Shown here: piece after piece, positions 37,571 through 63,869 of the stretch
How the letters are laid out: each line of letters starts with the position of its first letter
How positions within the stretch are numbered: position 1 is the stretch's first letter
NCBI GenBank assembly: GCA_018830645.1
Contig: JAHJSA010000069.1
Coordinates: forward strand, 55,279 to 119,278
DNA length: 64,000 nt
Direction: 5' to 3'
From: Actinomycetota bacterium
GTDB lineage: Bacteria > Actinomycetota > Thermoleophilia > RBG-16-64-13
Position numbers and translations under genes: made by a program
The notes under the pieces: generated by a model
The model's database searches: none
What the model saw: the letters and a program-made list of their open reading frames with translations, nothing else
What the model was told of the DNA's origin: nothing

Positions 37571-38933
37571 ACCTTGAGGACCACCCCACAGTCCGCTGGT
37601 TCCGCGAGCAGAAGGCCGCTGGCGAAGCCACGGCCACGTCGCAGGAAGACGGAGGAGTGGCCCAAGCGCTCACCCTCGAAGCCGCCCGGCTTCGGGCGAT
37701 CTGCCTGGAGGCAGGCGCCGACGCGCCGGTTTCGTCGAGATCGACCGCCCGGCGCTGGCAGGCCAGCGGGCGGGGCTTCTCGACGCCTTCCCCGGCACCC
37801 GCACCCTCGTCGGGCTGGTCTACCGCCTGAACAGGGGGAGTCTCAGGTCGACCAAGCACTCGAACGCCGGCCTCGAGTTCAAGCAGGCCTGGGATCACGC
37901 GAACCGCGCAGGGCGGGCGGCAGTCAAAAGACTCGGCGCCGAGGGCATCCCCGCGCTGAACGCCCCCGCGGGCTTCCCCTTCGACACCGAGGGCTGGCCC
38001 GGTGCTATCTGGTTCACTGCCGACAAGATCGTCGCCGAGGAGGCCGGGCACGGCAAGATGGGGAAGCACCGCTGCGTCATCCACCCCACCTTCGGCGGCG
38101 CCGTGGTGCTGAGCACGCTGCTGATCGCCGCCGAAGTCGATGCCTACGGCCAACCCCTCGACTTCGACCCCTGCCTTGATTGCGGGCTCTGCAACGGCGT
38201 GTGCCCCACCGGTGCCATCGCCAAAGACGGCGCCTTCGACTTCGTGAGCTGTTACGCCCACAACTACCGCGAGCGACTTGGAGGCTTCCAGAGTTGGGTG
38301 GAGAGTGTCGTGGCCTCTTCGAGCGTCAAGGACTACCGCAAGCGGGTGAGCGACCCGGAGACGGTCTCGATGTGGCAGAACCTCTCGATCGGCGCACAGA
38401 CGAAGTGTGACAAGTGCATGGCCGTCTGCCCGGCCGGCGAAGCCGCCATCGGCGAGTACCTCCCCGACCGCAAAGGCTACACCGAGCAAGTAGCTCATCG
38501 CCTGCATGACCGCGACGAGACCGTCTTCGTAGTGCCTGGTTCAGACGCCGAAGCCTACGTGACGAAGCGCTTCCCCGAAAAGCGTGTGAAGCGCGTCTCG
38601 AGCGGTATCCACCCGCAGTCCGCGGCAGGATTCATCGAAAACCTGCCCCTGGTGTTCCAGAGCGGGCAGTCGGCCGGGCTCGACACCACCTACCACTTCA
38701 CCTTCACCGGCGCCGAACAACTCGAAGCGACAGTCGTGATCCGCGACGGCCGGCTTGAATCCCAGCGAGGCCACGCCGGCACTCCCGACCTGCACGTGAC
38801 CGCCGACGCCGAGACCGGGGTGTCGTTCCTTGCCAAGGAGACCAGCCTGCCCAAAGCTCTCGCCACCCGCAAACTGAAGATCAAGGGGTCGCCCAAACTG
38901 ATGATGTCGTTCGCCCGCTGCTTCCCGCTCTAG
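37567..38933 (+). pseudogene. QueG-like cobalamin/[4Fe-4S] reductase (DUF1730 + ferredoxin motifs) fused to a C-terminal SCP2 sterol-carrier domain; -1 frameshift near 37717-37727 in this sequence
   Basis: Frame 0: MNLEDHPTVRWF...RLRAICLEAGADA. Frame +2 continues ...AGFVEIDRPALAG...GHGKMGKHRCVIHPTFGG...CLDCGLCNGVCPTGAI...CDKCMAVCPAG... then an SCP2-like tail (KLKIKGSPKLMMSFARCFPL). Confidence 0.6.
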
Positions 38934-38995: not shown

Positions 38996-40156
38996 TCAGT
39001 GCCCGGCGTCCGCCCAGAAGTCGCGGGCCGGTCGCAGTGCGCCGTAGCCGAGGGCGTCGTCCATCTTCACGAGAGCGCGATTCAAGAACGCGCTCCGTCT
39101 GCGGACAAGGACGCGGGCCGCGTCGTGTATGACGCCCAGAGCCTTGTTGAAAGGGCACACCCTGATGCAGGTGGCGCAATCCATGCGGTTCTTGGCCCAG
39201 TAGCCGAAGCACTTCTCGGCGTCGACGTACCACTTGCGCGGGCCCGACTGATTGGAGATGTTCGGGCCTTCCGTAGTCATGGGGCCGGTGGGTATGGCCC
39301 GCGAAGGGCAGCGTTCCGCGCACTTCTCGCACGACTCGCAGAACTCCACCACGCCGAAGGAGCGGTACTTGTCATGCGCCAGGGGAAGGTCTGTCAACAC
39401 CTTGCACAGCCGCACCCGGGGGCCGAACTCAGGCGTGACAAGCACACCCATGCGGCTCCATTCCCCCAGCCCCGCGGCCATGGCTAGGGGGACGCTGAGC
39501 ACCGTATCGTTGCCACAGGGCAGAGCCCGGTAGCCCAGGCCACGGATGAACGAGGCCACCAGATTCGCCGTGAAGGCCATCTTGGAGTAGCCGAGCCCGG
39601 TGGCCGCGCCCCCCACGCCCGTCGGAGCCGATCGGATGCCCTCGTAGTCCATGGCCACGGCTATGACGACGGCGTTGTCGATGCCCTCGGGCACCTCGAA
39701 GGGGCGATGCTCGCGCTCGAGCAGGTCGAACTCGTGGGAGTATACCCAGTTCGGATGGAGGGCGCAGATGCCCACGAGATCCGCGCCTACGAACCGCGCC
39801 ACCCGTTTCACCACAGTACTCATGCCTTCCGGGGTGTCCTCCACCGGGGGGCCGGCCTCCAGGTACGGGAGCATCTTGGGGTGCACGGCATCCCACGAAT
39901 ACAGGCCGTGGTTGCTGCGGGAGTTGCCGCAGGCGGCAGACCACTCCAGACTCCACGTGCCGTTCCGGAACGCGTAATCGAGACGCTGGAACCCAGGCTT
40001 CTTCTGATAGACGATGTCGCGGTAGAAGCGCTCCGCATCGGCATGGATGGCCTCATCCCACACGCTGCGCTTGAACATCTCGTTCTTCTGATCGAAACGG
40101 GAGTCCGCGACTGGGAACGGCGGAGATTCGGGAGGGTCGGGGTGCTGCTGCATCAT
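38996..40156 (-). CDS. RdhA-like (reductive dehalogenase / QueG superfamily) cobalamin-dependent Fe-S reductase; cytoplasmic, no TAT signal
   Basis: About 110 aa precede VKRVARFVGADLVGICALHPNWVYSH. Motifs FCESCEKCAERCP and C-x10-CATCIRVCPFNK follow. No RRxFLK twin-arginine motif and no adjacent rdhB. Confidence 0.65.
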   Translation of the reverse strand: MMQQHPDPPESPPFPVADSRFDQKNEMFKRSVWDEAIHADAERFYRDIVYQKKPGFQRLDYAFRNGTWSLEWSAACGNSRSNHGLYSWDAVHPKMLPYLEAGPPVEDTPEGMSTVVKRVARFVGADLVGICALHPNWVYSHEFDLLEREHRPFEVPEGIDNAVVIAVAMDYEGIRSAPTGVGGAATGLGYSKMAFTANLVASFIRGLGYRALPCGNDTVLSVPLAMAAGLGEWSRMGVLVTPEFGPRVRLCKVLTDLPLAHDKYRSFGVVEFCESCEKCAERCPSRAIPTGPMTTEGPNISNQSGPRKWYVDAEKCFGYWAKNRMDCATCIRVCPFNKALGVIHDAARVLVRRRSAFLNRALVKMDDALGYGALRPARDFWADAGH

Positions 40157-40307
40157 GCGCAGGGGCCGATCTTCGCCCTCGGGTAGCGGCGCTCAGTCAC
40201 AAGGACACCCCTTCCTCTTCGATCGCCCACGGTCTTCGAGTCCAACATGATACGTGATGGATCGTCTGATGGAGGGCTTGGACGCGGGTGTGCGTCCCAG
40301 CGGACCG

Positions 40308-40901
40308 TCATCCCGAGATCGTCACGCCTACGAAGTAGGGGCCGTGCCGGTCTTCTCGCGGGATGAGTCCGAACCCGTGCCGCATGGCGCGCCGGTTCGG
40401 GTCGATCAGCTTCTCCTTGGGCCCCTCGAAGAAGTGCCCGAGTTCCGCCTGAAGGGCCTTGAGCGGCAACACACCGGTGGCCGCGGCCAGCGCTCCCACC
40501 ATGACGACGTTGGCCATCTTCTCGGTGCCCAGTTTGGCGGCCACCTCCACCGCCGGCACGTAGAACACGTCGATATCGGTGCGGTGGGAGCGTTCTGGCA
40601 CGAGGGTCGAGTTCACCAGCAACACACCGTGCGGCACCACCCGCGGCTCGAACTTCTCGAAGCTCGGGGTGTTCATGGCCACCGCGACGTGGGGCCGGGC
40701 GACGATGGGCGAGGCGATGTCGCCGGTGGAGATCACCACCGTGCAGTTGGCCGTGCCTCCGCGCTGCTCCGGCCCATACGACGGCATCCACGTCACATGC
40801 AGGCCGGCGTCCATGGCCGTGTACGCCAGGAGCTGGCCCATCACCATGACCCCCTGGCCGCCAAAACCGGCGATGATGATCTCCAGACGCCGTCCGAGCA
40901 T
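40308..40901 (-). CDS. korC: 2-oxoacid:ferredoxin oxidoreductase gamma subunit
   Basis: IIIAGFGGQGVMVMGQLLA, the Por/Kor gamma motif. ATGA-coupled to korB. Confidence 0.8.
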   Translation of the reverse strand: MLGRRLEIIIAGFGGQGVMVMGQLLAYTAMDAGLHVTWMPSYGPEQRGGTANCTVVISTGDIASPIVARPHVAVAMNTPSFEKFEPRVVPHGVLLVNSTLVPERSHRTDIDVFYVPAVEVAAKLGTEKMANVVMVGALAAATGVLPLKALQAELGHFFEGPKEKLIDPNRRAMRHGFGLIPREDRHGPYFVGVTISG

Positions 40902-41890
40902 CAGTCCTCGTCTTCCGCGTCGTCGTGATCGGACGGGCGGTACTCCTCCCCGTCCACCGAGACCCAGCGGCCCCCGCGGCGCCCGAAGGGATGCACGCGG
41001 CGCGTGCGCCTGCCGAGTTCGTCCTCGGTGGCCTGGGTCACGGTCTCGTAACGGAAGCCGTGCATGTAGTCCTCACGGAAGGCCGTGGGCGGTTGCTGCA
41101 CCAGGTGGGCGAGGTGCACGGGTTCACGATCCTTGATCACCCCGAGCGGGTAGTAGGCCGACACCGTCTCGTCTATCCAGCGCATCGCGTCGACCGGCTT
41201 CATGCCCCAGTTCGTGGGGCACGGCGAAAGGAACTCCACCAGGCTGAACCCTTTCCCCTCCAGCTGGTACGTGAACGCCTTGCGCACAGCGCGATAAGCC
41301 ACTTTGATGTTCTCCGGATGAGTCACCGAGACCCGCTCCAGGTACACGGCGCCGTCGAGGGTGGCGAGCATCTCGGCTACCCGTATCGGATGCCCTTGGG
41401 TCGTGGGGTCGCGGCCCTCGGGGCTCGTCTCGGACCGCTGCCCGACGAGGGTGGTGGGCGCCATCTGGCCGCCGGTCATGCCGTACACGCAGTTGTTCAC
41501 GTAGATGACGGTGATGTTCTCCGAGCGCGCCGCCGCGTGCACGATCTCGGCGGTGCCGATGGCGGCCAGGTCGCCGTCGCCCTGGTATGTGAACACCACC
41601 AGGTCTGGTCGGGCCCGCTTGACGCCCGTGGCGGCCGCGGGAGCCCGGCCGTGCGGCACCTCCTGGAAGTCCACGTCGAGGTAGTTGTAGATCAGGATGG
41701 CGCAGCCCACGCCGGCCACGCCCACCGTCCGCTCGCGCACACCGAGTTCGTCGAGCGCGTTGGCCACGAGCCGGTGGATCAGACCGTGCCCGCACCCCGG
41801 GCAGTAGTGTGTGGTGGCGCATGCCCACGATCCGGGATGCTGCACCACCACGGGGGCGGTCTGCAGAGACGGTCCCGCGGGAGCAGTCAT
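40901..41890 (-). CDS. korB: 2-oxoacid:ferredoxin oxidoreductase beta subunit (TPP-binding)
   Basis: WCPGCGHG and GDGD...N TPP motifs. Start taken at MTAPAG, overlapping the korA stop (ORF track extends to 42019). Confidence 0.85.
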
Positions 41891-43029
41891 GAGGCGCCGC
41901 CCTTCCTGGGGGCCGCTCCCGTAGCCGGCAGCTCCTCCGCCACGTTCCTGATAGCCTCCAGCACCTCGAGCGGTGCGGGGATGGTGCCGCCCGACCGTCC
42001 GAAGAAGCTCACCGGACAACGGCCCTCGACGGCGAGCCGCACGTCTTCGACCATCTGACCGGCGGACAGCTCCACCACCAAGATGTGCTCGATCCCCCGC
42101 TGCTGGACCACTTCGCGAAGCGCGTCGTAGGGATACGGATAGACGGTGATAGGCCTGAACAGCCCCACCGGGATGTCTCGCTCCTCAGCAAGTTCCATGG
42201 CGTGGTAGGCGACCCGGGCACTCGTGCCGTATGCGACCAGCAGGATCCTCGCTCCCTCGAGAGCGTACGTCTTCCAACGCACCTCCGCCTGCTCGATGCG
42301 GCGGTACTTCTCCTGCAGCGACCGGTTGTGCTCCTCCAACTCCGCGGGGTCGAGGTAGAGGCTCTTGACCACCCGCTTGGGTCTGCCGGACGCGCCGGTC
42401 GTGGCCCACTCCGGCTCCTGCAACGACGCGGGGTCGATGGCTCTCGTGAAGGTGACGGGCTCCATCATCTGCCCGAGCACGCCGTCGGCCAGCAACAGCA
42501 CGGGGATCCGGTAGGCCTCGGCTAGAGAGAACGCGTCGAAGGTAAGGTCGACCATCTCTTGGAGGTTGGCCGGCACGAGCACGATGACCCGGAAGTCCCC
42601 GTGCCCCAGCCCACGGGTGGCCTGGAAGTAGTCGGACTGACTCGGCTGGATGCCGCCCAGTCCCGGCCCCACGCGCATGATGTTCACGATCAGGCAGGGC
42701 ACTTCGGCCGCGGCCAGGAACGAGACCCCCTCCGACATGAGGCTGATACCGGGGCTCGAGCTGGCGGTCATGGCGCGCATGCCGGTGCCCGCCGCGCCGA
42801 ACACCATGTTGATCGCCGCCACCTCGGACTCGGGCTGTACGAACGTGCCACCCTCCACCTGCATCCAGCGGGCCATGTACGAGGTGATCTCGCTGGCGGG
42901 GGTGATGGGGTAGCCGAAGTAGGCCCGGCAGCCGGCCTTCAGGGCGGCCTCGGCCAGAGCCTCGTTGCCCTTCATGAGCACGCGCTCGCCCAGTGGCACG
43001 TGGGGTTCTCCCAAGACCTCAGTCACCAC
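41887..43029 (-). CDS. korA: 2-oxoacid:ferredoxin oxidoreductase alpha subunit
   Basis: [30 protein letters not shown], the typical alpha-subunit N-terminus. Confidence 0.85.
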
Positions 43030-43429
43030 GCCTACCTTCGTCCTCTCGGCCCGATACGTCGATGTTCAAGGCACTACTCTCCGAGCCGTCCAGGCGACCG
43101 GCGGCGCCCTCCACGCCGGTGACGTCTCCATCGAGGCGGATCGCCGCATCGGGGCACATGAGTTCACAGTAACGGCAGCGCACGCACCAGAAGGAGAAGT
43201 TGTACTCGAAGCGCTCTTCGTCGACATCGGGCGCGGTCTCCGCCGGGCGCTGAGCATCGACGGCTGCCTCGGCAGCCGTCTCGGGATGCGCGGGATGGTA
43301 TCCGGACACGTTGAGGTGCTCATCGATGCGCAGATGGCCGAACGGGCAGAACTCGACACACAAGCCGCAACCTTTGCATCGGTCTTCATCGACCACCGGA
43401 GCATATGACCGCGGCCGATCTGCAGTCAC
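43019..43429 (-). CDS. korD: 2-oxoacid:ferredoxin oxidoreductase delta subunit (2x[4Fe-4S] ferredoxin)
   Basis: [12 protein letters not shown] and [12 protein letters not shown] motifs. First gene of the kor block. Confidence 0.75.
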
Positions 43430-47950: not shown

Positions 47951-50920
47951 ATGCCTTCGATCCACGACCTGCTCACCGATCTCAGCAATCGCAGCCGCTT
48001 CCAGGACTTCGAGGTCCTGATGTCCTCCCGCGTGGAGAACATCATCCTGGTCTCGAGCCTCTACGATAAGTTCATCCTCCAGGAAGACGGGCAGCTGAGC
48101 GAAGTGATCCTGGGCGAGTTCCTCGACCTACACCTGCACCACACCACCGGGCTCACGCACGTGGCCACGGGCACGGAAGCCCTCGAGTTGGCCCGCTCCA
48201 ACAAGACGTTCAACCTGATCATCACCGCGATCAACGTGGGCGACATGAACGCGGTCGAGCTGGCTGAGAAGGCCCGCGAAGCAGGGCTGGACGTGCCCAT
48301 CATCGTGCTGGCGTACGACGGCGGCGAGCTCTCCGACTTCATCAATCGGCACGACGTCTCCAAGATCGACAAGTTGTTCCTCTGGCAGGGCGACGTGCGG
48401 ATCCTGCTCGCGATCATCAAGCACGTCGAAGACAGGATGAACGTCGAGCACGATACGCAGGTCGCCGGTGTGCAGGTGATCCTCGTGGTCGAGGACAGCA
48501 TCCGCTACTACTCTTCGTTCCTGCCCATGATCTTCACGGAGCTGATCCGCTACTCGCAGCGGCTGATCCCCGGTGGCATGAACATCGCCCACAAGATCCT
48601 CCGCATGCGGGCGCGGCCCAAGATACTCCTCTGCACCACGTTCGAAGAGGCGTGGGACATGTTCACGCGCTACCAGCAAGACGTTCTGGGCATCATCTCC
48701 GACATCGAGTTCCCGCGGAACGGGGAGCTTGACCCGGAAGCCGGCGTGGAGTTCGCCAGCCGCGTGCGCGAGCTGTGGCCGGATGTGTCGATCGTGCTCC
48801 AGTCGGGCCGCCCGGAGAACGAAGCCCTGGCCAAGCAGGTGGGGGCCTCCTTCCTCCTCAAGGGTTCGGTCACGCTTCTGCAGGACCTGCGTCGGGTCAT
48901 GATCGAGCAGTTCTCGTTCGGCGACTTCGTGTTCCGCTCCCCCGACGGCGCAGAGATCGACCGTGCCGGCGATCTGCGCACGCTGGCGGAGAAGCTACAC
49001 ACGGTCCCGGTGGAGAGCACGGCCTTCCACGCTGAACGGAACCACTTCTCACGCTGGCTGAAGGCCCGCACCGAGTTCGCACTCGCCCATCGGCTGCGGC
49101 CCCGGAGGATCAGCGACTACGACACCCCCGAGGAGATGAAAGCAGCCCTCATCGAGACGATCGAGGAGTACCGTCGCGAACAGGGACGCACCATCATCGC
49201 CGACTTCGACCACCGCAGTTTCGACACGACGAGCTCTTTCAGTCGCATAGGCGGCGGGTCGCTCGGCGGGAAAGCGCGGGCACTGGCCTTCGTCCGGCAT
49301 CTTCTGAGCGCCGTCGACATGCACTCACGTTTCCCCGGAGTGCAGGTGTCGGTTCCGCCTTCGGTGGTGTTGGGCACCGACGTGTTCGACCAGTTCCTCG
49401 ACCGCAACGACCTGCGCGACTTCGCCATCCGCTCCACGGACACCGACGAGGTACGCAGAAGATTCCTCGCGGCACCGCTGCCCCACGAGGTCACACGCGA
49501 TCTCGTCTCGTTCCTCGAATTGATCACGTATCCGCTCGCGGTGCGCTCGTCCAGCCTGCTGGAAGACTCGCAGTATCAACCGCTTGCGGGCGTCTACGAG
49601 ACTTACATGCTGCCGAACAACCACCCGGACACGCGTCAACGCCTCCACCACCTCGAGGCCTCCATCAAGAACGTCTACGCGTCGACGTTCTCCACGCACG
49701 CCAAGAGCTACCTCGCCGCCACGCCATACCGTCTGGAAGAGGAGAAGATGGCGGTGATCGTGCAGAAGGTCGCGGGCGCCCCCCACGAGGAGCGCTTCTA
49801 TCCGGAGATCTCAGGAGTGGCCCGCTCCTACAACTTCTATCCCACCGACCCCGTGAAGGCTGAGGACGGCGTGGCCGTCGTGGCCCTTGGGTTGGGTCGG
49901 ACGGTGGTGCGCGGAGAACGGGCGCACAGCTTCTGCCCCAAGTACCCCCGACATCAACTGATCACGGGCAGTCTCGACGACACACTGCGCAACTCCCAGC
50001 GTTCGTTCTGGGCGATCGAGCTCGGCCCCCCGAGCGACGACGCCTCCCCCGATGTGTGGGAGAAGCAGTTCGACCTTGAGGCGGCCGAAGCCGACGGGAC
50101 TCTTGCCCACGTCGGCTCGACCTACTCCCCGGAGAACGAGGCCCTCTACGACGGCATCTCGCGCGACGGTGTGCGCGTGGTGAACTTCGCTCCGCTCCTG
50201 AAATTCGACCTGTTCCCGCTCGCGGGCATCATCGACCTTCTCCTCGACGTAGGCGCCCAAGGCATGGGCATGCCGGTGGAGATCGAGTTCGCGGCGAACC
50301 TCACCGTCGCCCCAGGTTCACCCAAGGAGTTCGCCTTCCTACAGATGAGGCCCATGGGGCTCTCTCGAGAGACGGAAGAGCTCACCATCGAGGATATCCA
50401 CAGCGACCGGGTGCTCTGCCACAGCAGCAGCACCTTGGGCAACGGGCGGCTCGACGGCATCCACGACGTGCTCATGGTGGACGTCGACCACTTCGACCGC
50501 TCGCGTAGCGCCGAAGCGGCCCGTGAGGTCGCCCGGTTCAACTCGAGACTCGCCCGGAACGGCACCCGCTACATCCTCATCGGAGTGGGACGCTGGGGCT
50601 CGGCCGACCCCTGGCTGGGCATCCCCGTGACGTGGGATGAGATAGCGAACGCCAAGGTGATAGTCGAGTCGGAGCTGAGAGACATCGCCGTCACGCCGTC
50701 GCAGGGCAGCCACTTCTTCCAGAACCTCACGTCGTTCCGAGTGGGCTACTTCACCGTCAACCCGGAGTCGGGCGACGGGCACGTCGACTGGGAATGGCTC
50801 GCCCGCCAAGAAGCGGTCGAGGAGGGCGAGTTCGTACGCCATCTGCACTTCACGGAGCCGCTCGAAGTCACCATGAACGGCGCGAAGCGGGAAGGGATCA
50901 TTCTGAAGCCCTCGACGTAA
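47951..50920 (+). CDS. Multidomain protein: two N-terminal receiver-like domains + PPDK_N (PEP/pyruvate dikinase nucleotide-binding, ATP-grasp-like) domain; no phosphohistidine or PEP-utilising domains
   Basis: VILVVEDS in the REC-like segment. SFSRIGGGSLGGKARALAFV and later regions match the pyruvate phosphate dikinase N-terminal domain. Start taken at MPSIHDL. Confidence 0.6.
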   Translation: MPSIHDLLTDLSNRSRFQDFEVLMSSRVENIILVSSLYDKFILQEDGQLSEVILGEFLDLHLHHTTGLTHVATGTEALELARSNKTFNLIITAINVGDMNAVELAEKAREAGLDVPIIVLAYDGGELSDFINRHDVSKIDKLFLWQGDVRILLAIIKHVEDRMNVEHDTQVAGVQVILVVEDSIRYYSSFLPMIFTELIRYSQRLIPGGMNIAHKILRMRARPKILLCTTFEEAWDMFTRYQQDVLGIISDIEFPRNGELDPEAGVEFASRVRELWPDVSIVLQSGRPENEALAKQVGASFLLKGSVTLLQDLRRVMIEQFSFGDFVFRSPDGAEIDRAGDLRTLAEKLHTVPVESTAFHAERNHFSRWLKARTEFALAHRLRPRRISDYDTPEEMKAALIETIEEYRREQGRTIIADFDHRSFDTTSSFSRIGGGSLGGKARALAFVRHLLSAVDMHSRFPGVQVSVPPSVVLGTDVFDQFLDRNDLRDFAIRSTDTDEVRRRFLAAPLPHEVTRDLVSFLELITYPLAVRSSSLLEDSQYQPLAGVYETYMLPNNHPDTRQRLHHLEASIKNVYASTFSTHAKSYLAATPYRLEEEKMAVIVQKVAGAPHEERFYPEISGVARSYNFYPTDPVKAEDGVAVVALGLGRTVVRGERAHSFCPKYPRHQLITGSLDDTLRNSQRSFWAIELGPPSDDASPDVWEKQFDLEAAEADGTLAHVGSTYSPENEALYDGISRDGVRVVNFAPLLKFDLFPLAGIIDLLLDVGAQGMGMPVEIEFAANLTVAPGSPKEFAFLQMRPMGLSRETEELTIEDIHSDRVLCHSSSTLGNGRLDGIHDVLMVDVDHFDRSRSAEAAREVARFNSRLARNGTRYILIGVGRWGSADPWLGIPVTWDEIANAKVIVESELRDIAVTPSQGSHFFQNLTSFRVGYFTVNPESGDGHVDWEWLARQEAVEEGEFVRHLHFTEPLEVTMNGAKREGIILKPST

Positions 50921-52301: not shown

Positions 52302-54998
52302 TCAAGCCACCGGAACGGCGCGCCCCGGGCCGAGGATGGAGTCGATCTTCCCCACGAGGTCAGCGGGTGAGAACGGCTTATCGATGAACTCGACCCCGGG
52401 GGGCAAGCCTCCGCGTTCGGTCAACCCGGTTCCGGCGTAGCCCGACATGAGGAGCAGGTGCGCGTCGTGCGACTGCGCCGCCAGGCACTCCACGAGTTCC
52501 CGGCCTCCCATGCGCGGCATGACGACATCGGAGAGGATCAGATCCACCTCGCCACACTCCTTGAGGATCTCGAGCGCCTCCTCGCCGTCTGCGGCCTCGA
52601 TCACCGTGTAGCCCTGTTGACGCAGTGTACGTGTGGCCAGACCGCGGACGGCCGCTTCATCTTCCACCACCATGATCCTGCCTACCCCCGCATTCGGCGT
52701 TCGCTGTTCGAGCGGAGCCTCTGGGATCACTTCGCCCATGGACAATGGTAGAAATACCTGGAAGAGCGCTCCTCGTCCCTCGTGCGAGTCGACTCTGATG
52801 CCGCCGCCGCTCTGGCTCACGATCCCGAAGACGGTAGCGAGACCCAGACCGGTGCCGGCTTCACCCTTAGTGGTGAAGAACGGCTCGAACACGTGGGCGC
52901 GGGTACGCTCGTCCATGCCGACGCCTGTGTCCGCTACCGTCGCGCGCACGTATCGGCCAACGGGGAGTCCCTCATGCGCGATGGGGTGGTCGGCGCTCAC
53001 CCACACCGATGAGGTCTCCAAGGTCAATCTGCCTCCGCGGGGCATCGCGTCTCTCGCATTGACCGTCAGGTTCATGAAGACCTGTTCGATCTGACTCGGG
53101 TCCGCTTCGACGAGCGGCAGCCGCTCCTCTAATCTCACGTTCACTTCGATGTGTTCGCCCACCAGGCGACCGAGGATCGGCTCAAGCCCCCGCACCACAT
53201 CGTTGAGATCGACCACCTTGGGTCGCATCACCTGGCGCCGTGAGAAGGCCAGCAACTGCCGGGTCAATGCGGCGGCACGCTGGGCGACGTTCCGTATCTC
53301 AAGCGCGTCCGCACGCCTGGGATCGTCGTCGTCGAGATCGCCGGCGAGCATGTCGGAGAAGCCGAGGATAGCCGTGAGGAAGTTGTTGAAGTCGTGGGCG
53401 ACACCTCCGGCCAACAGACCCACGGCCTCCATCCTCTGAGACTGCCGAGACCGCTCTTCGTTCCCCCGCTGCTCTGTCACGTCTTCGAGTATGCCCACGA
53501 TCTCGAGCGGGGTGCCTTTGTGACTCCGGGCCAGGGTCATGCTGTCGCGGATCCACCGGTAGGCTCCGTCCGGTCCTCGCAGCTGATAGTCCACCAAGTG
53601 TTTGCCCTTCTCGAAGACCGCGGTCATGTCATCGTAGGCATGACGATCGTTGGGGTGCACGTGGCGTTCCCAGAAGTCCTGGTCGGCGAGAAAGGCTGAA
53701 GCTGGGTATCCAAGCCGTTGCAGTGCGTTCGCACCCATGTAGGTCAAGTCGTAAGGGGCATTGGCCTCCGCCGTATACATCACCGCCGGGCTCAGATCCA
53801 TCAGATAGTCGGAGCGACGTTGCTGCTTCACAAGCTCTTCGTGTGCACTACGCAGCTTGAGCGTGCGATCGACCATGCGGCTCTCGAGCTCTGCCTTCGC
53901 CTCCAGGAGTTCATCTTCGATGCGTTTCCTTCGGGTGATGTCGCGCATGATGTGAACCCTGCCACGACACCTCCCGCGGCGGCCTCTCAGGTCACGCCGA
54001 TGCACCTCGAATACACTCGCCCCCGGTCCGGCTTGCCATTCCGGTGGACCCGCCGCGGCTTCGGCCTCCTGGGTGAGGATCGCACGCAGATCGGACACCG
54101 GTGCGAAGGACTCCTCCACGTGCCGACCGATGACATCTGAGATCGCCAATCCGGTCGCCTCACGGGCCGCAGGATTCATTTCTGCGACGCGGCCGATATC
54201 GTCTACCACGATCAACCCCTCGCCCATCTGCTCCACGACAAGCCTGTGCGCGATGGGGATCACATCAAGGAATCGGTGCCGATAGAAACTCACGAAGAGA
54301 ACGAGGGCCGAGAGCGAGAAGGCCATGGGCGCCGGATTCACATGGCTGACTCCGGTCAGGTACGTCAGATCGGCCAGAAGTGGCAGTGTGACGGCGAGCA
54401 CCAGCCCGAGCGCCTGCCTTTGATGCAGGCGGGGAGCGCGCGCGAACGTGTCCGCAAGAATCAGAAGCGCGAGGACCATGAGAAGGTACACGTAGGCCGT
54501 GTCCGTCCACCACCACAAGGTGCCTGTCACCACCAGGGTGGGCACGTTGGCGACCACCTCAAGCTCCAGGCCCCGCCAGAGAAGTCCGTGCAGCTCGTTC
54601 GTCCACCCGAGGAGCAGCGTGACTACCGGCACGATGGAGAGCAGAACTACGTTGCGCGCGGTGACGAGCCGGTCGCTTCCCACGTAAGCCAGTGCGAACA
54701 GCAAGGTCGCCGGCCCGAAGGGAGCCATACCGAGCAGCTCGACCTTGTACCAGAACACGGCGCTCTCGAGATCGAGCGCCCCAAGGCGCGCGGCCGTTGC
54801 CACCGACCAGACTACCGCCCCGAAGGCGAGCATTCCGAGTGCCAGCGCCCCGGGAGCTTGGCGGCGCCGCACGGCCATCACCCCCACCGCCGTGCCCAGC
54901 AGCGCCGCAGCCAGCAGCAAAGCCGCTTCGAGCATCATGCGTACGAGACCGCCACGTTCATCCGCTTCACCTCGAGTACGTTCGGCACCACGCTCCAT
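52302..54998 (-). CDS. Hybrid sensor histidine kinase: N-terminal multi-TM domain, PAS domains, HisKA/HATPase and C-terminal receiver
   Basis: HDFNN H-box, N/G1/G2 ATPase boxes, and MVVEDE...D receiver motifs. Start uncertain (ORF track extends to 55133). Confidence 0.75.
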   Translation of the reverse strand: MERGAERTRGEADERGGLVRMMLEAALLLAAALLGTAVGVMAVRRRQAPGALALGMLAFGAVVWSVATAARLGALDLESAVFWYKVELLGMAPFGPATLLFALAYVGSDRLVTARNVVLLSIVPVVTLLLGWTNELHGLLWRGLELEVVANVPTLVVTGTLWWWTDTAYVYLLMVLALLILADTFARAPRLHQRQALGLVLAVTLPLLADLTYLTGVSHVNPAPMAFSLSALVLFVSFYRHRFLDVIPIAHRLVVEQMGEGLIVVDDIGRVAEMNPAAREATGLAISDVIGRHVEESFAPVSDLRAILTQEAEAAAGPPEWQAGPGASVFEVHRRDLRGRRGRCRGRVHIMRDITRRKRIEDELLEAKAELESRMVDRTLKLRSAHEELVKQQRRSDYLMDLSPAVMYTAEANAPYDLTYMGANALQRLGYPASAFLADQDFWERHVHPNDRHAYDDMTAVFEKGKHLVDYQLRGPDGAYRWIRDSMTLARSHKGTPLEIVGILEDVTEQRGNEERSRQSQRMEAVGLLAGGVAHDFNNFLTAILGFSDMLAGDLDDDDPRRADALEIRNVAQRAAALTRQLLAFSRRQVMRPKVVDLNDVVRGLEPILGRLVGEHIEVNVRLEERLPLVEADPSQIEQVFMNLTVNARDAMPRGGRLTLETSSVWVSADHPIAHEGLPVGRYVRATVADTGVGMDERTRAHVFEPFFTTKGEAGTGLGLATVFGIVSQSGGGIRVDSHEGRGALFQVFLPLSMGEVIPEAPLEQRTPNAGVGRIMVVEDEAAVRGLATRTLRQQGYTVIEAADGEEALEILKECGEVDLILSDVVMPRMGGRELVECLAAQSHDAHLLLMSGYAGTGLTERGGLPPGVEFIDKPFSPADLVGKIDSILGPGRAVPVA

Positions 54999-55147
54999 TC
55001 CTCCTTCAGGAAGATATCGGCACAATAGGCGGTCGGCCTGAAGGATGGTGAGACGCGTCCGGTGGTTTAGTCCGCCATGCGGGGCGGGCATCCATGACTG
55101 AAGAGACACCGCTGAGATCGTCAGCGCCAACACATAGGAGTCGGATC

Positions 55148-55402
55148 ATGGATCAACCCCCCGTCAAGCTCTATGCTCTTAGCACCTGCGGCCACTGCAA
55201 GCACACGAAACAGCTTCTCGACGAGTGCAACGTCGTGTATGACTGCATTGATGTGGACAAATGCGATGCCGAGGAGCGTCAGGCGGTCCTTGACGAGGTG
55301 CGCGCGGTCAACCCCAACTGCTCGTTCCCCACCATCGTCATCGGCGACAAGGTGATCGTGGGCTACAAGGAGGCCGAGATCAAAGAGGCCTTGGGGCTGT
55401 GA
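55148..55402 (+). CDS. Glutaredoxin-like protein (CGHC active site, NrdH/YruB-like)
   Basis: VKLYALSTCGHCKHTKQLL in an 84-aa thioredoxin fold. GTGA-coupled to the next gene. Confidence 0.7.
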   Translation: MDQPPVKLYALSTCGHCKHTKQLLDECNVVYDCIDVDKCDAEERQAVLDEVRAVNPNCSFPTIVIGDKVIVGYKEAEIKEALGL

Positions 55403-55737
55403 GGAACGACGTCCGAGCCTTGTACGAGCGGCTTGGCCCTCTGCAGGAGAAGAAGGGCTACCCGTTCAACGCAGACGTGGAGACCGTGGAAAGCCTCCTC
55501 GAAGGCCTGCTTGTCAACAAGGAGCGCTACGGGTACATGAGTTGTCCGTGCCGCCTCGCGGTGGGCGACAGAGAACTCGACAAAGACATCATCTGTCCGT
55601 GCGACTATCGGGCGCCCGACGTAGAGGAGTACGGCGCGTGCTATTGCGCTCTCTACGTGTCGCCGGCCTGGAACGAGGGCTCCTTGCCCCGGGACACCGT
55701 ACCGGAGCGGCGCCCTATCGGGCGCCTTCCCTACTAG
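55399..55737 (+). CDS. Ferredoxin:thioredoxin reductase catalytic-subunit homolog (FtrC-like)
   Basis: CPCR...CPC...CYC spacing (YMSCPCRLAVGD...IICPCDY...YGACYCALYV) as in the FTR catalytic subunit. Confidence 0.7.
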   Translation: MRNDVRALYERLGPLQEKKGYPFNADVETVESLLEGLLVNKERYGYMSCPCRLAVGDRELDKDIICPCDYRAPDVEEYGACYCALYVSPAWNEGSLPRDTVPERRPIGRLPY

Positions 55738-55824
55738 GAGTCGGCCACCCGCCCGCGGCAAGGCGGTCGCGATCATCCGGCCGCTCGGGGCCCCGCCTGT
55801 CGGCGGGCGCCCCGGTCACGAAGA

Positions 55825-60689: not shown

Positions 60690-63600
60690 ATGGCCACGCT
60701 CGGGATCGACATCGGCTGTATCAGTACGAAGATGGCGGTTGTGGGAGAGGAGTCGGACCGCGAGGCCTTCGCCCGACTCGCACACGACCACCCGCTGTTC
60801 CGCACTCCCCCGGCCTCAGCGGCCGCGGATGAGGGCTCGACGGGGGCGCCGCTCCTGGTGACCGAGTACCGCCGCATCACCGGTAGCCCCATCGAAAGCT
60901 CCCGTGGTCTGCTCTCCGAGGTGCTCGAAGCTCTACCTCCCGACTCCGTGTCGGGCATCAGGGCCACCGGCTCGGGTGCCAAGCTCATCGCGTCCGGTTT
61001 GGGCGCCGGCATCGAGAACGAGTTCAAGGCGATCGCGCGGGCCGTGGGCACGCTCCACCCAGAGGTAGCGTACGTCTTCGAGATGGGCGGCGAGACCTCG
61101 AAGTTCATTCAACTCGAGACAGACCCCGACACGGGTCGAGTGGGCATCGCCGACTACCAGACCAACGGGGACTGCGCGGCGGGCACCGGTTCGTTCATGG
61201 ATCAACAGGCGAACCGCCTGCTGTACGAGGTCGAGGACATAGGCGAGATCGTGTGCGGCGCCGGCAAGGCCGCCACCATCGCGGGCCGCTGCTCGGTGTT
61301 CGCGAAGTCCGACATGATCCACGCGCAACAGAAGGGTTACCAACCGCCCGAGGTCCTCAAAGGTCTCTGCAACGCTGTCATCCGCAACTACAAGGGCACG
61401 ATCGCCAAAGGCAAGCATGTCGACGGCAAAGTGGCCTTCATCGGTGGGGTCGCGGCGAACGAGGGGGCGGTCGAAGCCCTACTCGAAGCCTTCGAACTCC
61501 CGCGGGAGCGCCTCCTGATCCCACGTGACTACGCGTGGATGGGGGCCATCGGCGCTGCGCTCATCGAAGCGGATGAGGCGGCCGGCCGCGCTCCCATGGT
61601 GATCGACGTGCAAGACCTCGGCACTCTGCAGTCGGGTGGGCTCCCCATCTCCGATCCACTCAACATGGATCGCGTCATCCTTCTGCGCGACAGGGTGAAG
61701 CCGTACGAGCTTCCCGCCGAAGGCACGTTCGACGCGTATCTGGGTATCGACGTGGGCTCGGTGTCCACCAACCTCGTGGTGCTCGACGCCGACGGCGAGG
61801 TGGTCAAGGAGATCTACATCAAGACGGACGGCCGCCCGGTAGAAGTGGTCAACAGAGGTCTTGCTGAGATTCGCGACGAGCTCGGCGACAGGCTCGTGAT
61901 CAGGGGTGTGGGCACCACCGGCTCCGGGCGTGAGCTGATCGGGGAGTTGGCCGGAGCCGATACCGTGAACGATGAGATCACGGCCCACAAGACGGGCGCC
62001 ACGTTCATCGGGCGCAAGCTCATCGGCCGCATCCCCGACACCATCTTCGAGATCGGAGGGCAAGATTCGAAGTACATCAGCCTGCAGGACGGCGTCGTGG
62101 TGGACTTCGCCATGAACGAAGCCTGCGCCGCGGGCACGGGCTCGTTCCTCGAAGAGCAGGCCGAGAAGCTCGGCATCAGTATCATTGGCGAGTTCGCCGA
62201 ATTGGGCCTGGGCGCCCCCTCCCCCGTGCGACTCGGAGAGCGCTGCACGGTGTTCATGGAGCGCGACGTCAACTCGTATCTGCAGCGTGGGGCGGAGAAG
62301 GCGGATCTCGTGGCCGGCCTCGCCTACTCGATCGTCTACAACTACCTGAACCGCCTGGTCGGCACGCGTCACGTGGGCGACACCATCTACTTCCAGGGCG
62401 GCACCGCCTACAACGACGCCGTGGCCGCCGCGTTCAGCCAGGTGCTCGACAAGGAGATCATCGTACCGCCGCACAACGGCGTGGTGGGAGCCATCGGCAT
62501 GGGCCTGCTCGCCCGCGAGAAGATGTCGGCCACGGGCGACATCTCGCGCTTCCGGGGCTGGGACCTCGAACAGGTGGACTACACGATCCGCGAGTTCACG
62601 TGCAAGGGTTGCACCAACGAGTGCGACATCCGCCAGTTCACCATCGGCGACGAGAAGACCTACTGGGGCGACAAGTGCTCCGACCGGTACCGCAAACGGG
62701 CCAAGGTGGACAAGACCCCGGTGATACAAGACCTTCTCGCCTTCCGCGAGAAGGTGGCGTTCTCCTACATCGTCGACGACCAGAGCCAAGCGCCCGTTGA
62801 AGCTCGCAAGACCGACCGTGACGGGGCGCCCGACTTCTCCGGCATGGTGCGCACCGGCTCTGGCGCGCGCCTGGGCACCGTGGGGATCCCCCGCTCCATG
62901 TACACGTTCGACCGCCTACCCTTCTGGTCGGTGTTCTTCAAGGAGTGCGGCTTCGACGTACTCATCTCGGGTGAGACCGACAAGCACATCCGCGAGGCCG
63001 GGGTGGATCACTCGGTGGCCGAGCCGTGCTTCCCGATACGAGTGGCCCATGGGCACGTGTCGCAGCTCTTCGGGGGCGGCGCCGACACGGTGTTCATCCC
63101 GAACATCCTCAACGAGGAGACCGATCACCCCGAGATCGAATCCCACGCGTGCCCCTGGGGGCAGACCCTCCCCTGGGTCGTCCGGGCGGCTCCGCATCTC
63201 GAGCAGTACGCGGACCGTATGCTCACTCCCACCATCCACTTCCGTCGCGGGCCGCGCTATCTGAAGGAGTCTCTGGGGAAGTCGGTCAAGCAGTTCGGAG
63301 TCAGACAGAAGGTCGTCGACCACGCGGTCGACCGAGCCTACGAGGCCCAAGCCAGGTACAAGAACGCACTCGTGCAGGCCGGCAGCGACGCGCTCGCCGC
63401 CATCGAAGAGCAGGGAGAGATGGGGATCGTGCTCCTGGGACGCGGCTACAACGTGTACGACTCGGGCGTCAACATGGATATCCCCGCCAAGCTGCGCAAG
63501 TACTATGGGGTGAACGTGATCCCCCTGGACTTCCTGCCGCTCTGGGGAACGCCTACGCAGGATGTCGTGCCGAACATGTTCTGGAACTACGGACGGCGCA

Positions 63601-63869
63601 TGATCCAGGCCGCGAAGTTCGTGGCTGAGCGCCCATACCTTCACATCATCTACATCACGAATTTCAAGTGCGGCCCCGACTCGTACATCAAGCACTTCGT
63701 GCGGACGGCCTCGGCGCAGCCCTTCCTCACGCTGCAGTTCGACGAGCACACCAACGACGCCGGCGCGATGACCCGCTGCGAAGCCTACCTCGACAGCAAG
63801 GGGTTCCTGCGCTGGTGGACCCGCGACGCGCAGGCCGCCCAAGTGCCGGCAGTGGGAGAGAGAACGTGA
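60690..63869 (+). CDS. Fusion of two BadF/BadG/BcrA/BcrD (HgdC-type) ATPase 'activase' modules with a C-terminal dehydratase-like (DUF2229-type) domain
   Basis: Two ASKHA starts (GIDIGCISTK; GIDVGSVSTN). Cys pairs after each module for a bridging [4Fe-4S] cluster. About 400-aa C-terminal domain with conserved Cys/His. Confidence 0.8.
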   Translation: MATLGIDIGCISTKMAVVGEESDREAFARLAHDHPLFRTPPASAAADEGSTGAPLLVTEYRRITGSPIESSRGLLSEVLEALPPDSVSGIRATGSGAKLIASGLGAGIENEFKAIARAVGTLHPEVAYVFEMGGETSKFIQLETDPDTGRVGIADYQTNGDCAAGTGSFMDQQANRLLYEVEDIGEIVCGAGKAATIAGRCSVFAKSDMIHAQQKGYQPPEVLKGLCNAVIRNYKGTIAKGKHVDGKVAFIGGVAANEGAVEALLEAFELPRERLLIPRDYAWMGAIGAALIEADEAAGRAPMVIDVQDLGTLQSGGLPISDPLNMDRVILLRDRVKPYELPAEGTFDAYLGIDVGSVSTNLVVLDADGEVVKEIYIKTDGRPVEVVNRGLAEIRDELGDRLVIRGVGTTGSGRELIGELAGADTVNDEITAHKTGATFIGRKLIGRIPDTIFEIGGQDSKYISLQDGVVVDFAMNEACAAGTGSFLEEQAEKLGISIIGEFAELGLGAPSPVRLGERCTVFMERDVNSYLQRGAEKADLVAGLAYSIVYNYLNRLVGTRHVGDTIYFQGGTAYNDAVAAAFSQVLDKEIIVPPHNGVVGAIGMGLLAREKMSATGDISRFRGWDLEQVDYTIREFTCKGCTNECDIRQFTIGDEKTYWGDKCSDRYRKRAKVDKTPVIQDLLAFREKVAFSYIVDDQSQAPVEARKTDRDGAPDFSGMVRTGSGARLGTVGIPRSMYTFDRLPFWSVFFKECGFDVLISGETDKHIREAGVDHSVAEPCFPIRVAHGHVSQLFGGGADTVFIPNILNEETDHPEIESHACPWGQTLPWVVRAAPHLEQYADRMLTPTIHFRRGPRYLKESLGKSVKQFGVRQKVVDHAVDRAYEAQARYKNALVQAGSDALAAIEEQGEMGIVLLGRGYNVYDSGVNMDIPAKLRKYYGVNVIPLDFLPLWGTPTQDVVPNMFWNYGRRMIQAAKFVAERPYLHIIYITNFKCGPDSYIKHFVRTASAQPFLTLQFDEHTNDAGAMTRCEAYLDSKGFLRWWTRDAQAAQVPAVGERT

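Follow-up and report, generated by a model that had tools for sequence, protein, structure and literature searches.

An overlapping glutaredoxin-like and FTRc-like gene pair, a candidate ferredoxin-dependent disulfide reductase of an uncultured actinobacterium

Ferredoxin:thioredoxin reductases (FTRs) and ferredoxin:disulfide reductases (FDRs) constitute one class of disulfide reductases with a [4Fe-4S] cluster, and methanoredoxin uses coenzyme M, as stated in a review (PMC7278568). The described system that lies closest to the locus reported here is the crystal structure 7PWE, released on 2022-10-05 under the title of a glutaredoxin/ferredoxin disulfide reductase fusion protein from Desulfotalea psychrophila Lsv54, a sulfate reducer of the Desulfobulbales. 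The FDR of Methanosarcina acetivorans (4TPU) is a protein of 173 aa in total with a C-terminal rubredoxin [1Fe-0S] domain; it is reportedly ferredoxin-dependent, carries a tyrosine at the active site in place of the FTR histidine, and is said to reduce Trx5 and methanoredoxin. The FTR of plants and cyanobacteria has a variable subunit, and its partner is thioredoxin f or m, not a protein of glutaredoxin fold. The FDR family, the Tyr-for-His active site and the association of FDR with a glutaredoxin-like protein, as a pair or as a fusion, are already known, and in the searchable literature we found no paper on the biochemistry of any split bacterial glutaredoxin/FDR pair or of 7PWE.

Here we describe a pair of overlapping genes in the window, that is, the whole stretch of 64,000 nucleotides of actinobacterial DNA that was analysed. 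The pair probably forms one operon for a two-component, ferredoxin-dependent disulfide reductase of the FDR type, whose immediate substrate would be the glutaredoxin-like operon partner. An earlier note on this DNA had already put forward the glutaredoxin-like protein and the FtrC homolog as a candidate ferredoxin:disulfide reductase, and sequence, fold and synteny support this proposal. Both open reading frames are as the note had described them, an 84-aa CGHC protein coupled through GTGA to a 112-aa protein with the pattern CPC...CPC...CYC, and the overlap is real (Table 1). The start at position 54999 that had been given for the unit is intergenic, not genic, and the pair itself occupies 55148-55737. 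Gene calling carried out independently on the 136-kb source contig (ENA ERZ27247117 k141_520897) gave exactly the same two genes. A longer frame of 102 aa from an ATG at 55094 exists as well, but the alignments with homologs begin at residue 1-6 of the 84-aa form and not earlier; this form begins MDQPPVKLYALSTCGHCK.

Table 1. Positions of the gene pair, its signals and the oxidoreductase genes within the window
Feature	Position	Strand	Signals or basis
Glutaredoxin-like (methanoredoxin-like) gene, 84 aa	55148..55402	+	ATG 55148, TGA 55400-55402
FTRc-like (FDR) gene, 112 aa	55399..55737	+	GTG 55399, TAG 55735-55737
GTGA start/stop overlap of the glutaredoxin-like and FDR genes	55399..55402	+	direct sequence reading
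AGGAG Shine-Dalgarno, 7 nt 5' of the glutaredoxin-like start codon	55136..55140	+	sequence; also kept in L001
Divergent intergenic region, 209 bp, hybrid histidine kinase / gene pair	54939..55147	.	gene calls
GC-rich inverted repeat, 17-nt arms, 82% complementary	55750..55809	.	repeat search
2-oxoacid:ferredoxin oxidoreductase (OFOR) alpha subunit (POR_N/PFOR_II)	41887-43029	-	Pfam domains
OFOR beta subunit (TPP)	40901-42019	-	Pfam domains
OFOR 2x[4Fe-4S] delta-like subunit	43019-43429	-	Fe-S motif scan

The GTGA overlap would couple the translation of the two genes. The promoter or promoters of the pair and of the divergent kinase gene presumably lie within the spacer between them, in which the promoter scan found no match to the sigma-70 consensus and no Rfam family exceeded its threshold. 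A riboswitch or leader RNA 5' of the pair was discarded as a candidate, the Rfam matches at E<=1 being chance matches far below threshold. The alignment of this spacer with that of the closest locus (L001) was uninformative, the two genomes being too close. On the other side of the pair, the inverted repeat lies where the FDR and serC genes converge, within the 87 bp that separate them, and might represent a bidirectional terminator hairpin, judged from its sequence; it lacks a T-run and for this reason escaped the terminator scan.

The assignment of the 112-aa protein rests in the first place on its match to the Pfam profile FeThRed_B (PF02943; E 1.3e-20, 73.9 bits against a cut-off of 22), the profile which the earlier note had proposed to search. 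Together with the Glutaredoxin match of the small protein given below, likewise far above the curated threshold, this score shows that the pair is not a chance pattern. In the PDB sequence search the protein matched residues 85-189 of 7PWE with an E value of 2.5e-37 and the M. acetivorans FDR 4TPU with 4.4e-33, whereas the classical FTR catalytic chains of Synechocystis and Arabidopsis reached only 5.5e-5 to 3e-3. The same order was found at the level of structure, since an AlphaFold2 model built with 25 homologs (mean pLDDT 80.2) was aligned by Foldseek to 7PWE with TM 0.78 (E 1e-10), to 4TPU with TM 0.70 (E 3e-7) and to classical FTRc with TM about 0.5. On the basis of this model the 112-aa protein is predicted to adopt the FTRc/FDR fold, and by its sequence it belongs to the FDR branch, not to the plant and cyanobacterial FTR branch.

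The cysteines of the protein are arranged as C49-P-C51, C66-P-C68 and C81-Y-C83, and a conserved V-P-E-R-R-P motif is located at the C-terminus. The alignments place all six cysteines opposite those of Synechocystis FTRc, 7PWE and 4TPU, so that Cys55/57, Cys74/76 and Cys85/87 of the Synechocystis protein correspond to C49/51, C66/68 and C81/83, respectively (Synechocystis numbering counted along the 2PVG alignment with the offset to 1DJ7). The alignment of cysteine and histidine positions to FtrC and FDR, suggested previously as a check, thus held for all six cysteines, but not for the conserved histidine of FTR, which is absent. At the position of FTR His86 the protein has Tyr82; a tyrosine is found there also in 7PWE and 4TPU, whereas 2PVD and 2PVG have the histidine of a CHC motif. 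Since His86 is regularly replaced by tyrosine or phenylalanine in the FDR branch, this substitution places the protein among the FDRs and does not refute a redox role. C49, C66, C68 and C81 are the predicted ligands of a [4Fe-4S] cluster and C51-C83 is the predicted redox-active disulfide. This assignment, with C51 as the exposed interchange thiol, follows the established FTR structure reported by Dai et al. (2000 and 2007).

The membership of the protein in PF02943, and the name ferredoxin:thioredoxin reductase under which its relatives appear in public databases, could also suggest a classical FTR that acts on a canonical thioredoxin and controls enzymes of carbon metabolism as in cyanobacteria and chloroplasts. 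Synechocystis FTRc (1DJ7, 2PVG) indeed shares the Pfam family, the core fold and the cluster-ligand and redox-active cysteines with the window protein, but the identity amounts to 20-24% at an E value of about 1e-4, compared with 1e-37 to 1e-33 for the FDRs, and the exchange of His86 for tyrosine argues in the same direction. Moreover, the earlier statement that no variable subunit is present was confirmed for the 10 kb on each side, where the precomputed Pfam matches of the called genes contain no FeThRed_A, and the coupled partner is of glutaredoxin fold, its score against the Thioredoxin Pfam profile being 18 bits, under the cut-off of 23.5. A classical FTR function of the locus is therefore highly unlikely.

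The 84-aa protein matched the Pfam Glutaredoxin profile (PF00462) with an E value of 5e-14 (52.7 bits, cut-off 22.9). It carries the active site C14-G-H-C17 (codons 55187-55198), the cis-Pro motif F60-P61-T62 and the additional cysteines C27, C33, C39 and C58. Its best solved relative in the PDB sequence search is the Methanosarcina glutaredoxin 3NZN (E 4e-20), followed by the N-terminal 84 residues of 7PWE (E 3.5e-19) and the Methanosarcina glutaredoxin 5CAX (E 2e-17), which we take to be the methanoredoxin of M. acetivorans. Judged by the curated NCBIfam cut-offs, the protein is not a mycoredoxin (TIGR02200, 29.9 bits against 89.5), a Grx3 (TIGR02181, 36 bits against 90) or a member of the YruB family (TIGR02196, 57.2 bits against 88.55). 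The NrdH redoxin model (TIGR02194) gave a weak match with an E value of 2e-6. This match would be consistent with another reading, in which the pair is not a general disulfide reductase but a dedicated electron chain for one enzyme encoded elsewhere, such as a class III ribonucleotide reductase, a peroxiredoxin or a methionine-sulfoxide reductase. There is a precedent for this, since an NrdH-like/FDR pair of Methanosarcina barkeri reportedly serves the anaerobic class III ribonucleotide reductase (Wei et al., cited in PMC6262447). The NrdH score of 27.8 bits, however, lies far below the cut-off of 85.75, which argues against a dedicated chain and also against the small protein being a general NrdH partner, the finding by which the earlier note would have seen its proposal refuted.

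Compared with 7PWE, both window proteins are homologous over their full length, and the FDR part is 57% identical when aligned by structure. The order of glutaredoxin followed by FDR, the CPC/CPC/CYC cysteines and the lack of a variable subunit are the same, and neither system has a rubredoxin domain (in 7PWE, none in the aligned region). The two systems differ in that 7PWE is one fused chain whereas here the genes are separate and overlap, in the host, a member of the Desulfobulbales in one case and an actinobacterial MAG in the other, and in the active site of the partner, which is CGFC in 7PWE and CGHC in the window protein. Since the C-x-H-C site is unlike both this CGFC and the CVWC of the Methanosarcina partner 3NZN, the redox properties of the partner may differ as well. 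The M. acetivorans FDR shares with the window protein the six cysteines and the active-site tyrosine of the catalytic domain, but the rubredoxin domain has no counterpart here, as the window protein ends at residue 112 and FeThRed_B is the sole domain detected by Pfam. The rubredoxin domain defines an FDR sub-type only, because 7PWE is also without it in the aligned region. The reported reduction of methanoredoxin by the M. acetivorans FDR represents the same donor-acceptor relation as the one proposed for the window pair.

In the protein database 6670 clusters matched the 112-aa protein at E<=1e-5, most of them unnamed or labelled as ferredoxin-thioredoxin reductase catalytic subunit, and 642 representatives of a 50%-identity library did so at E<=1e-3. 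A scan with one genome per species yielded at least 555 loci, the best 80 of which were analysed. These best 80 belong in their majority to the Thermodesulfobacteriota, the others to Actinomycetota/Thermoleophilia/Gaiellales, Nitrospirota, Chloroflexota and further groups; the closest one comes from an uncultured actinobacterium MAG with an FDR that is 94% identical (L001). A separate glutaredoxin-like gene directly preceded the FDR gene, in the same orientation, in 72 of the best 80 of at least 555 loci, the two were fused in one (L054, Desulfopila), and the glutaredoxin-like gene was absent from the remaining seven. At almost every one of the 72 split loci, the stop codon of the first gene overlaps or adjoins the start codon of the second (ATGA, TGATG or TAATG). 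One of the relatives with the pair, Desulfacinum infernum (L011), can be cultivated. The split, translationally coupled pair is thus the dominant and highly conserved form across anaerobic bacteria, commoner than the fused form exemplified by 7PWE (72 against one in this sample). The previous description of such pairs as known from a few anaerobes understated their occurrence, given the coupled pair at these 72 loci in several phyla and a deposited crystal structure of the fused form.

The key residues are very strongly conserved. Among the best 80 of at least 555 loci, C14, C17 and P61 of the partner are invariant (100%), and 99% of the split partners have histidine as the third residue of the active site (C-x-H-C). 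In the reductase of the same loci, C49, C51, C66, C68 and C81 are 100% conserved together with R43, Y44 and G45, C83 is conserved in 99%, and the residues of the V-P-E-R-R-P motif in 96-100%. The position flanked by C81 and C83 is tyrosine (CYC) in 73 and phenylalanine (CFC) in six of these 80. Further fusions of the glutaredoxin-like protein and FDR were found in P0122 and P0127, and some distant members of the family are joined to MarR-type DNA-binding domains, in the order Grx-FDR-MarR or FDR-MarR (P0245, P0206). As the window pair is the split form of what is a single-chain protein elsewhere, the two products can be expected to work together (the Rosetta-stone argument).

Clustering of all open reading frames within 4 kb on each side of the best 80 of at least 555 loci revealed no conserved third gene that would name a target, and only neighbors restricted to certain lineages. 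These include a Prismane/CODH-family gene at 18, a DUF255 thioredoxin-domain protein at 11, sigma-54 activators at ten and an NqrF-like reductase at ten of the 80 loci. SOD is also among the lineage-varying neighbors of the pair. A ribonucleotide reductase was found neither among the annotated genes of the window nor among the neighbor clusters common to at least eight of the best 80 of at least 555 loci, and neighbors that change with the lineage (CODH, DUF255, NqrF-like, SOD) fit a general-purpose module. A chain dedicated to a single enzyme elsewhere is accordingly improbable.

The gene divergent from the pair encodes a hybrid histidine kinase, in which Pfam detected HisKA_7TM, two PAS domains, HisKA, HATPase_c and a receiver domain. 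The divergent arrangement and the PAS domains noticed earlier were confirmed, but the kinase, which had been taken to start at 55133, most likely starts at 54938, judged from the gene call on the source contig, and has 878 aa. Such an arrangement might suggest that the pair is a redox input to this 7TM-PAS kinase and reports the redox state of ferredoxin by reduction of a regulatory disulfide in the kinase. The two divergent units share a common 209-bp intergenic region, the same arrangement is present in L001, and the fusions with MarR domains indicate that regulatory uses of the module exist. However, the closest relative is the only one of the best 80 of at least 555 loci in which the kinase adjoins the pair, and at 94% identity of the FDR adjacency is uninformative. 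In the next-closest actinobacterial locus (L002, FDR 74% identical) serC and rlmL are still found downstream but there is no kinase, and no kinase lies beside the pair in any other of the best 80 of at least 555 loci. The redox-linked signalling that the divergent kinase had been thought to suggest therefore receives no comparative support, and an input to the kinase is very doubtful. The wider formulation, in which the module of this actinobacterial lineage would sense the redox poise of ferredoxin and feed into regulation through the kinase, and would not be a housekeeping reductase, appears equally far from likely; if it were true, it would represent ferredoxin-to-thiol-switch signalling outside photosynthetic organisms, parallel to the MarR fusions.

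With regard to the source of electrons, the window contains a 2-oxoacid:ferredoxin oxidoreductase operon (Table 1), which shows that the organism makes or uses low-potential ferredoxin. This operon had been proposed to supply the pair from 12 kb upstream. It is indeed present, 12-14 kb upstream, but the link is circumstantial, because the two lie 12-14 kb apart on opposite strands with unrelated genes between them. A stand-alone gene for a small ferredoxin or rubredoxin was not found near the pair, where the Fe-S motif scan detected only larger Fe-S proteins and the delta-like subunit of the oxidoreductase.

The proposal of a two-component FDR is based on homology, the conservation of the cysteines, the fold, the coupling of the genes, natural fusions and the wide conservation of the pair, all of which were observed. 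The binding of a cluster, ferredoxin as the donor and the partner as the immediate substrate are what we infer in this model. The 112-aa protein would bind one [4Fe-4S] cluster via C49, C66, C68 and C81, beside the disulfide C51-C83, and reduced ferredoxin would give it two single electrons in succession. As neither a rubredoxin domain nor a variable subunit is present, ferredoxin presumably docks directly on the 112-aa protein, probably on a homodimer. Since the rubredoxin domain is the proposed site of electron entry in the archaeal FDR and is absent here, the donor could also be one other than ferredoxin. Cleavage of the disulfide would proceed, as in FTR, via an intermediate bound to the cluster, with Tyr82 replacing the FTR histidine, and the exposed thiol of C51 would then attack the C14-C17 disulfide of the 84-aa partner. 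The reduced partner, in turn, may pass the electrons on to oxidized disulfides in proteins or to mixed ones that contain a low-molecular-weight thiol. Bacteria of the Actinomycetota are not known to make coenzyme M.

Since the principle has been established for the Methanosarcina FDR and the structure of a bacterial fusion has been deposited, the locus adds an occurrence at the level of the phylum, not a new mechanism. It extends the glutaredoxin/FDR system to an actinobacterium of Thermoleophilia-like affiliation, and thereby to a phylum that is not usually discussed in this context. If the pair works as proposed, it would provide this uncultured actinobacterium with an NADPH-independent route from low-potential ferredoxin, which could come for example from the 2-oxoacid:ferredoxin oxidoreductase, to thiol/disulfide homeostasis.

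Beyond its active-site pair, the glutaredoxin (Grx)-like protein encoded with the ferredoxin:disulfide reductase-type protein (FDR) carries two further conserved cysteines, C27 and C58, which are retained in 80% and 91%, respectively, of the aligned operon partners of the sampled loci, C58 lying directly ahead of the cis-Pro loop. These additional cysteines may form a second disulfide or a metal site. The third active-site residue, H16, is a histidine in 99% of the partners (C-x-H-C), and the CGHC motif of the window protein is identical to that of protein disulfide isomerase. In contrast, this histidine is absent from both the aligned Methanosarcina homolog (3NZN), which also lacks C58, and the Desulfotalea psychrophila Grx/FDR fusion (7PWE). 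The start codon of the Grx-like gene is covered by the 3' arm of an 18-nt inverted repeat (see table). In the mRNA leader, this repeat could block initiation of translation; alternatively, it could be a chance occurrence.

The sole NCBIfam match of the window FDR is NF041072 ("FtrB family double-selenoprotein"), and NF041212 ("Uxx-star" glutaredoxin-like selenoproteins) is among the better matches of the Grx-like protein. Since both components match selenoprotein families, selenocysteine versions of both exist elsewhere; the window proteins are all-Cys forms. Moreover, many fusion architectures contain the FDR domain (representative proteins P0245, P0206, P0243, P0217, P0157, and P0166), including Grx-FDR-MarR (341 aa), FDR-MarR, rubredoxin-Grx-FDR, Grx-FDR-DUF3422 (637 aa), and FDR-rubredoxin. 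The MarR fusions suggest that the module is wired directly to transcription control in some lineages.

Among the best 80 of at least 555 related loci, seven have an FDR gene without an adjoining glutaredoxin-like gene (L016, L033, L034, L041, L043, L073, and L075). Four of them (L041, L043, L073, and L075) share an alternative context with a HAD-family hydrolase gene upstream of the FDR gene, and in three of these (L041, L043, and L075) the downstream region holds a convergent gene for an N-terminally extended Fe/Mn superoxide-dismutase-like protein; Pfam confirmation of this context covers L073 and L043 only. In 18 loci of the same set of 80, the opposite strand carries, about 2 kb upstream, a Prismane/CO-dehydrogenase-family gene whose product has a CooS-like Cys motif at its N terminus; in 11 loci, a DUF255/YyaL thioredoxin-domain protein is encoded near the pair. 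Both proteins are possible lineage-specific clients of the Grx/FDR pair.

Positions of neighboring genes and of the inverted repeat (window positions unless a locus is named)
Feature	Position	Strand	Remarks
Fe-S protein	38058-38933	+	
Fe-S protein	38996-40156	-	
2-oxoacid:ferredoxin oxidoreductase cluster	40901-43429	-	
beta subunit	40901-42019	-	
alpha subunit	41887-43029	-	
delta-like subunit	43019-43429	-	2x[4Fe-4S]
PPDK_N (PEP/pyruvate-binding) protein	47951-50920 (L081 2553-5522)	+	989 aa; Pfam
Inverted repeat	55080-55097 / 55146-55163		arms 78% complementary, 48 nt apart; repeat search
BcrAD_BadFG + DUF2229 protein	60690-63869 (L081 15292-18471)	+	1059 aa; Pfam
Prismane/CO-dehydrogenase-family gene	L066:3135-5105	-	and 17 other Desulfobacterales loci
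DUF255/YyaL thioredoxin-domain protein	L058:2786-4741	+	and 10 others

The window also encodes a 2-oxoacid:ferredoxin oxidoreductase, for which a Pfam search of the next ORF (40153-40791) found no gamma-subunit match. One of the two Fe-S proteins combines a weak, below-threshold reductive-dehalogenase-family match with a 4Fe-4S double-cluster domain, and the other is a fusion of an N-terminal 4Fe-4S dicluster with an SCP2 domain. The PPDK_N protein shows a faint response-regulator receiver match, an unusual combination. The BcrAD_BadFG + DUF2229 gene is followed by a gene for a 456-aa protein with no match in Pfam. The BcrAD_BadFG + DUF2229 protein itself is similar to a 2-hydroxyacyl-CoA dehydratase or benzoyl-CoA reductase activator and constitutes a further marker of ferredoxin-based anaerobic metabolism.
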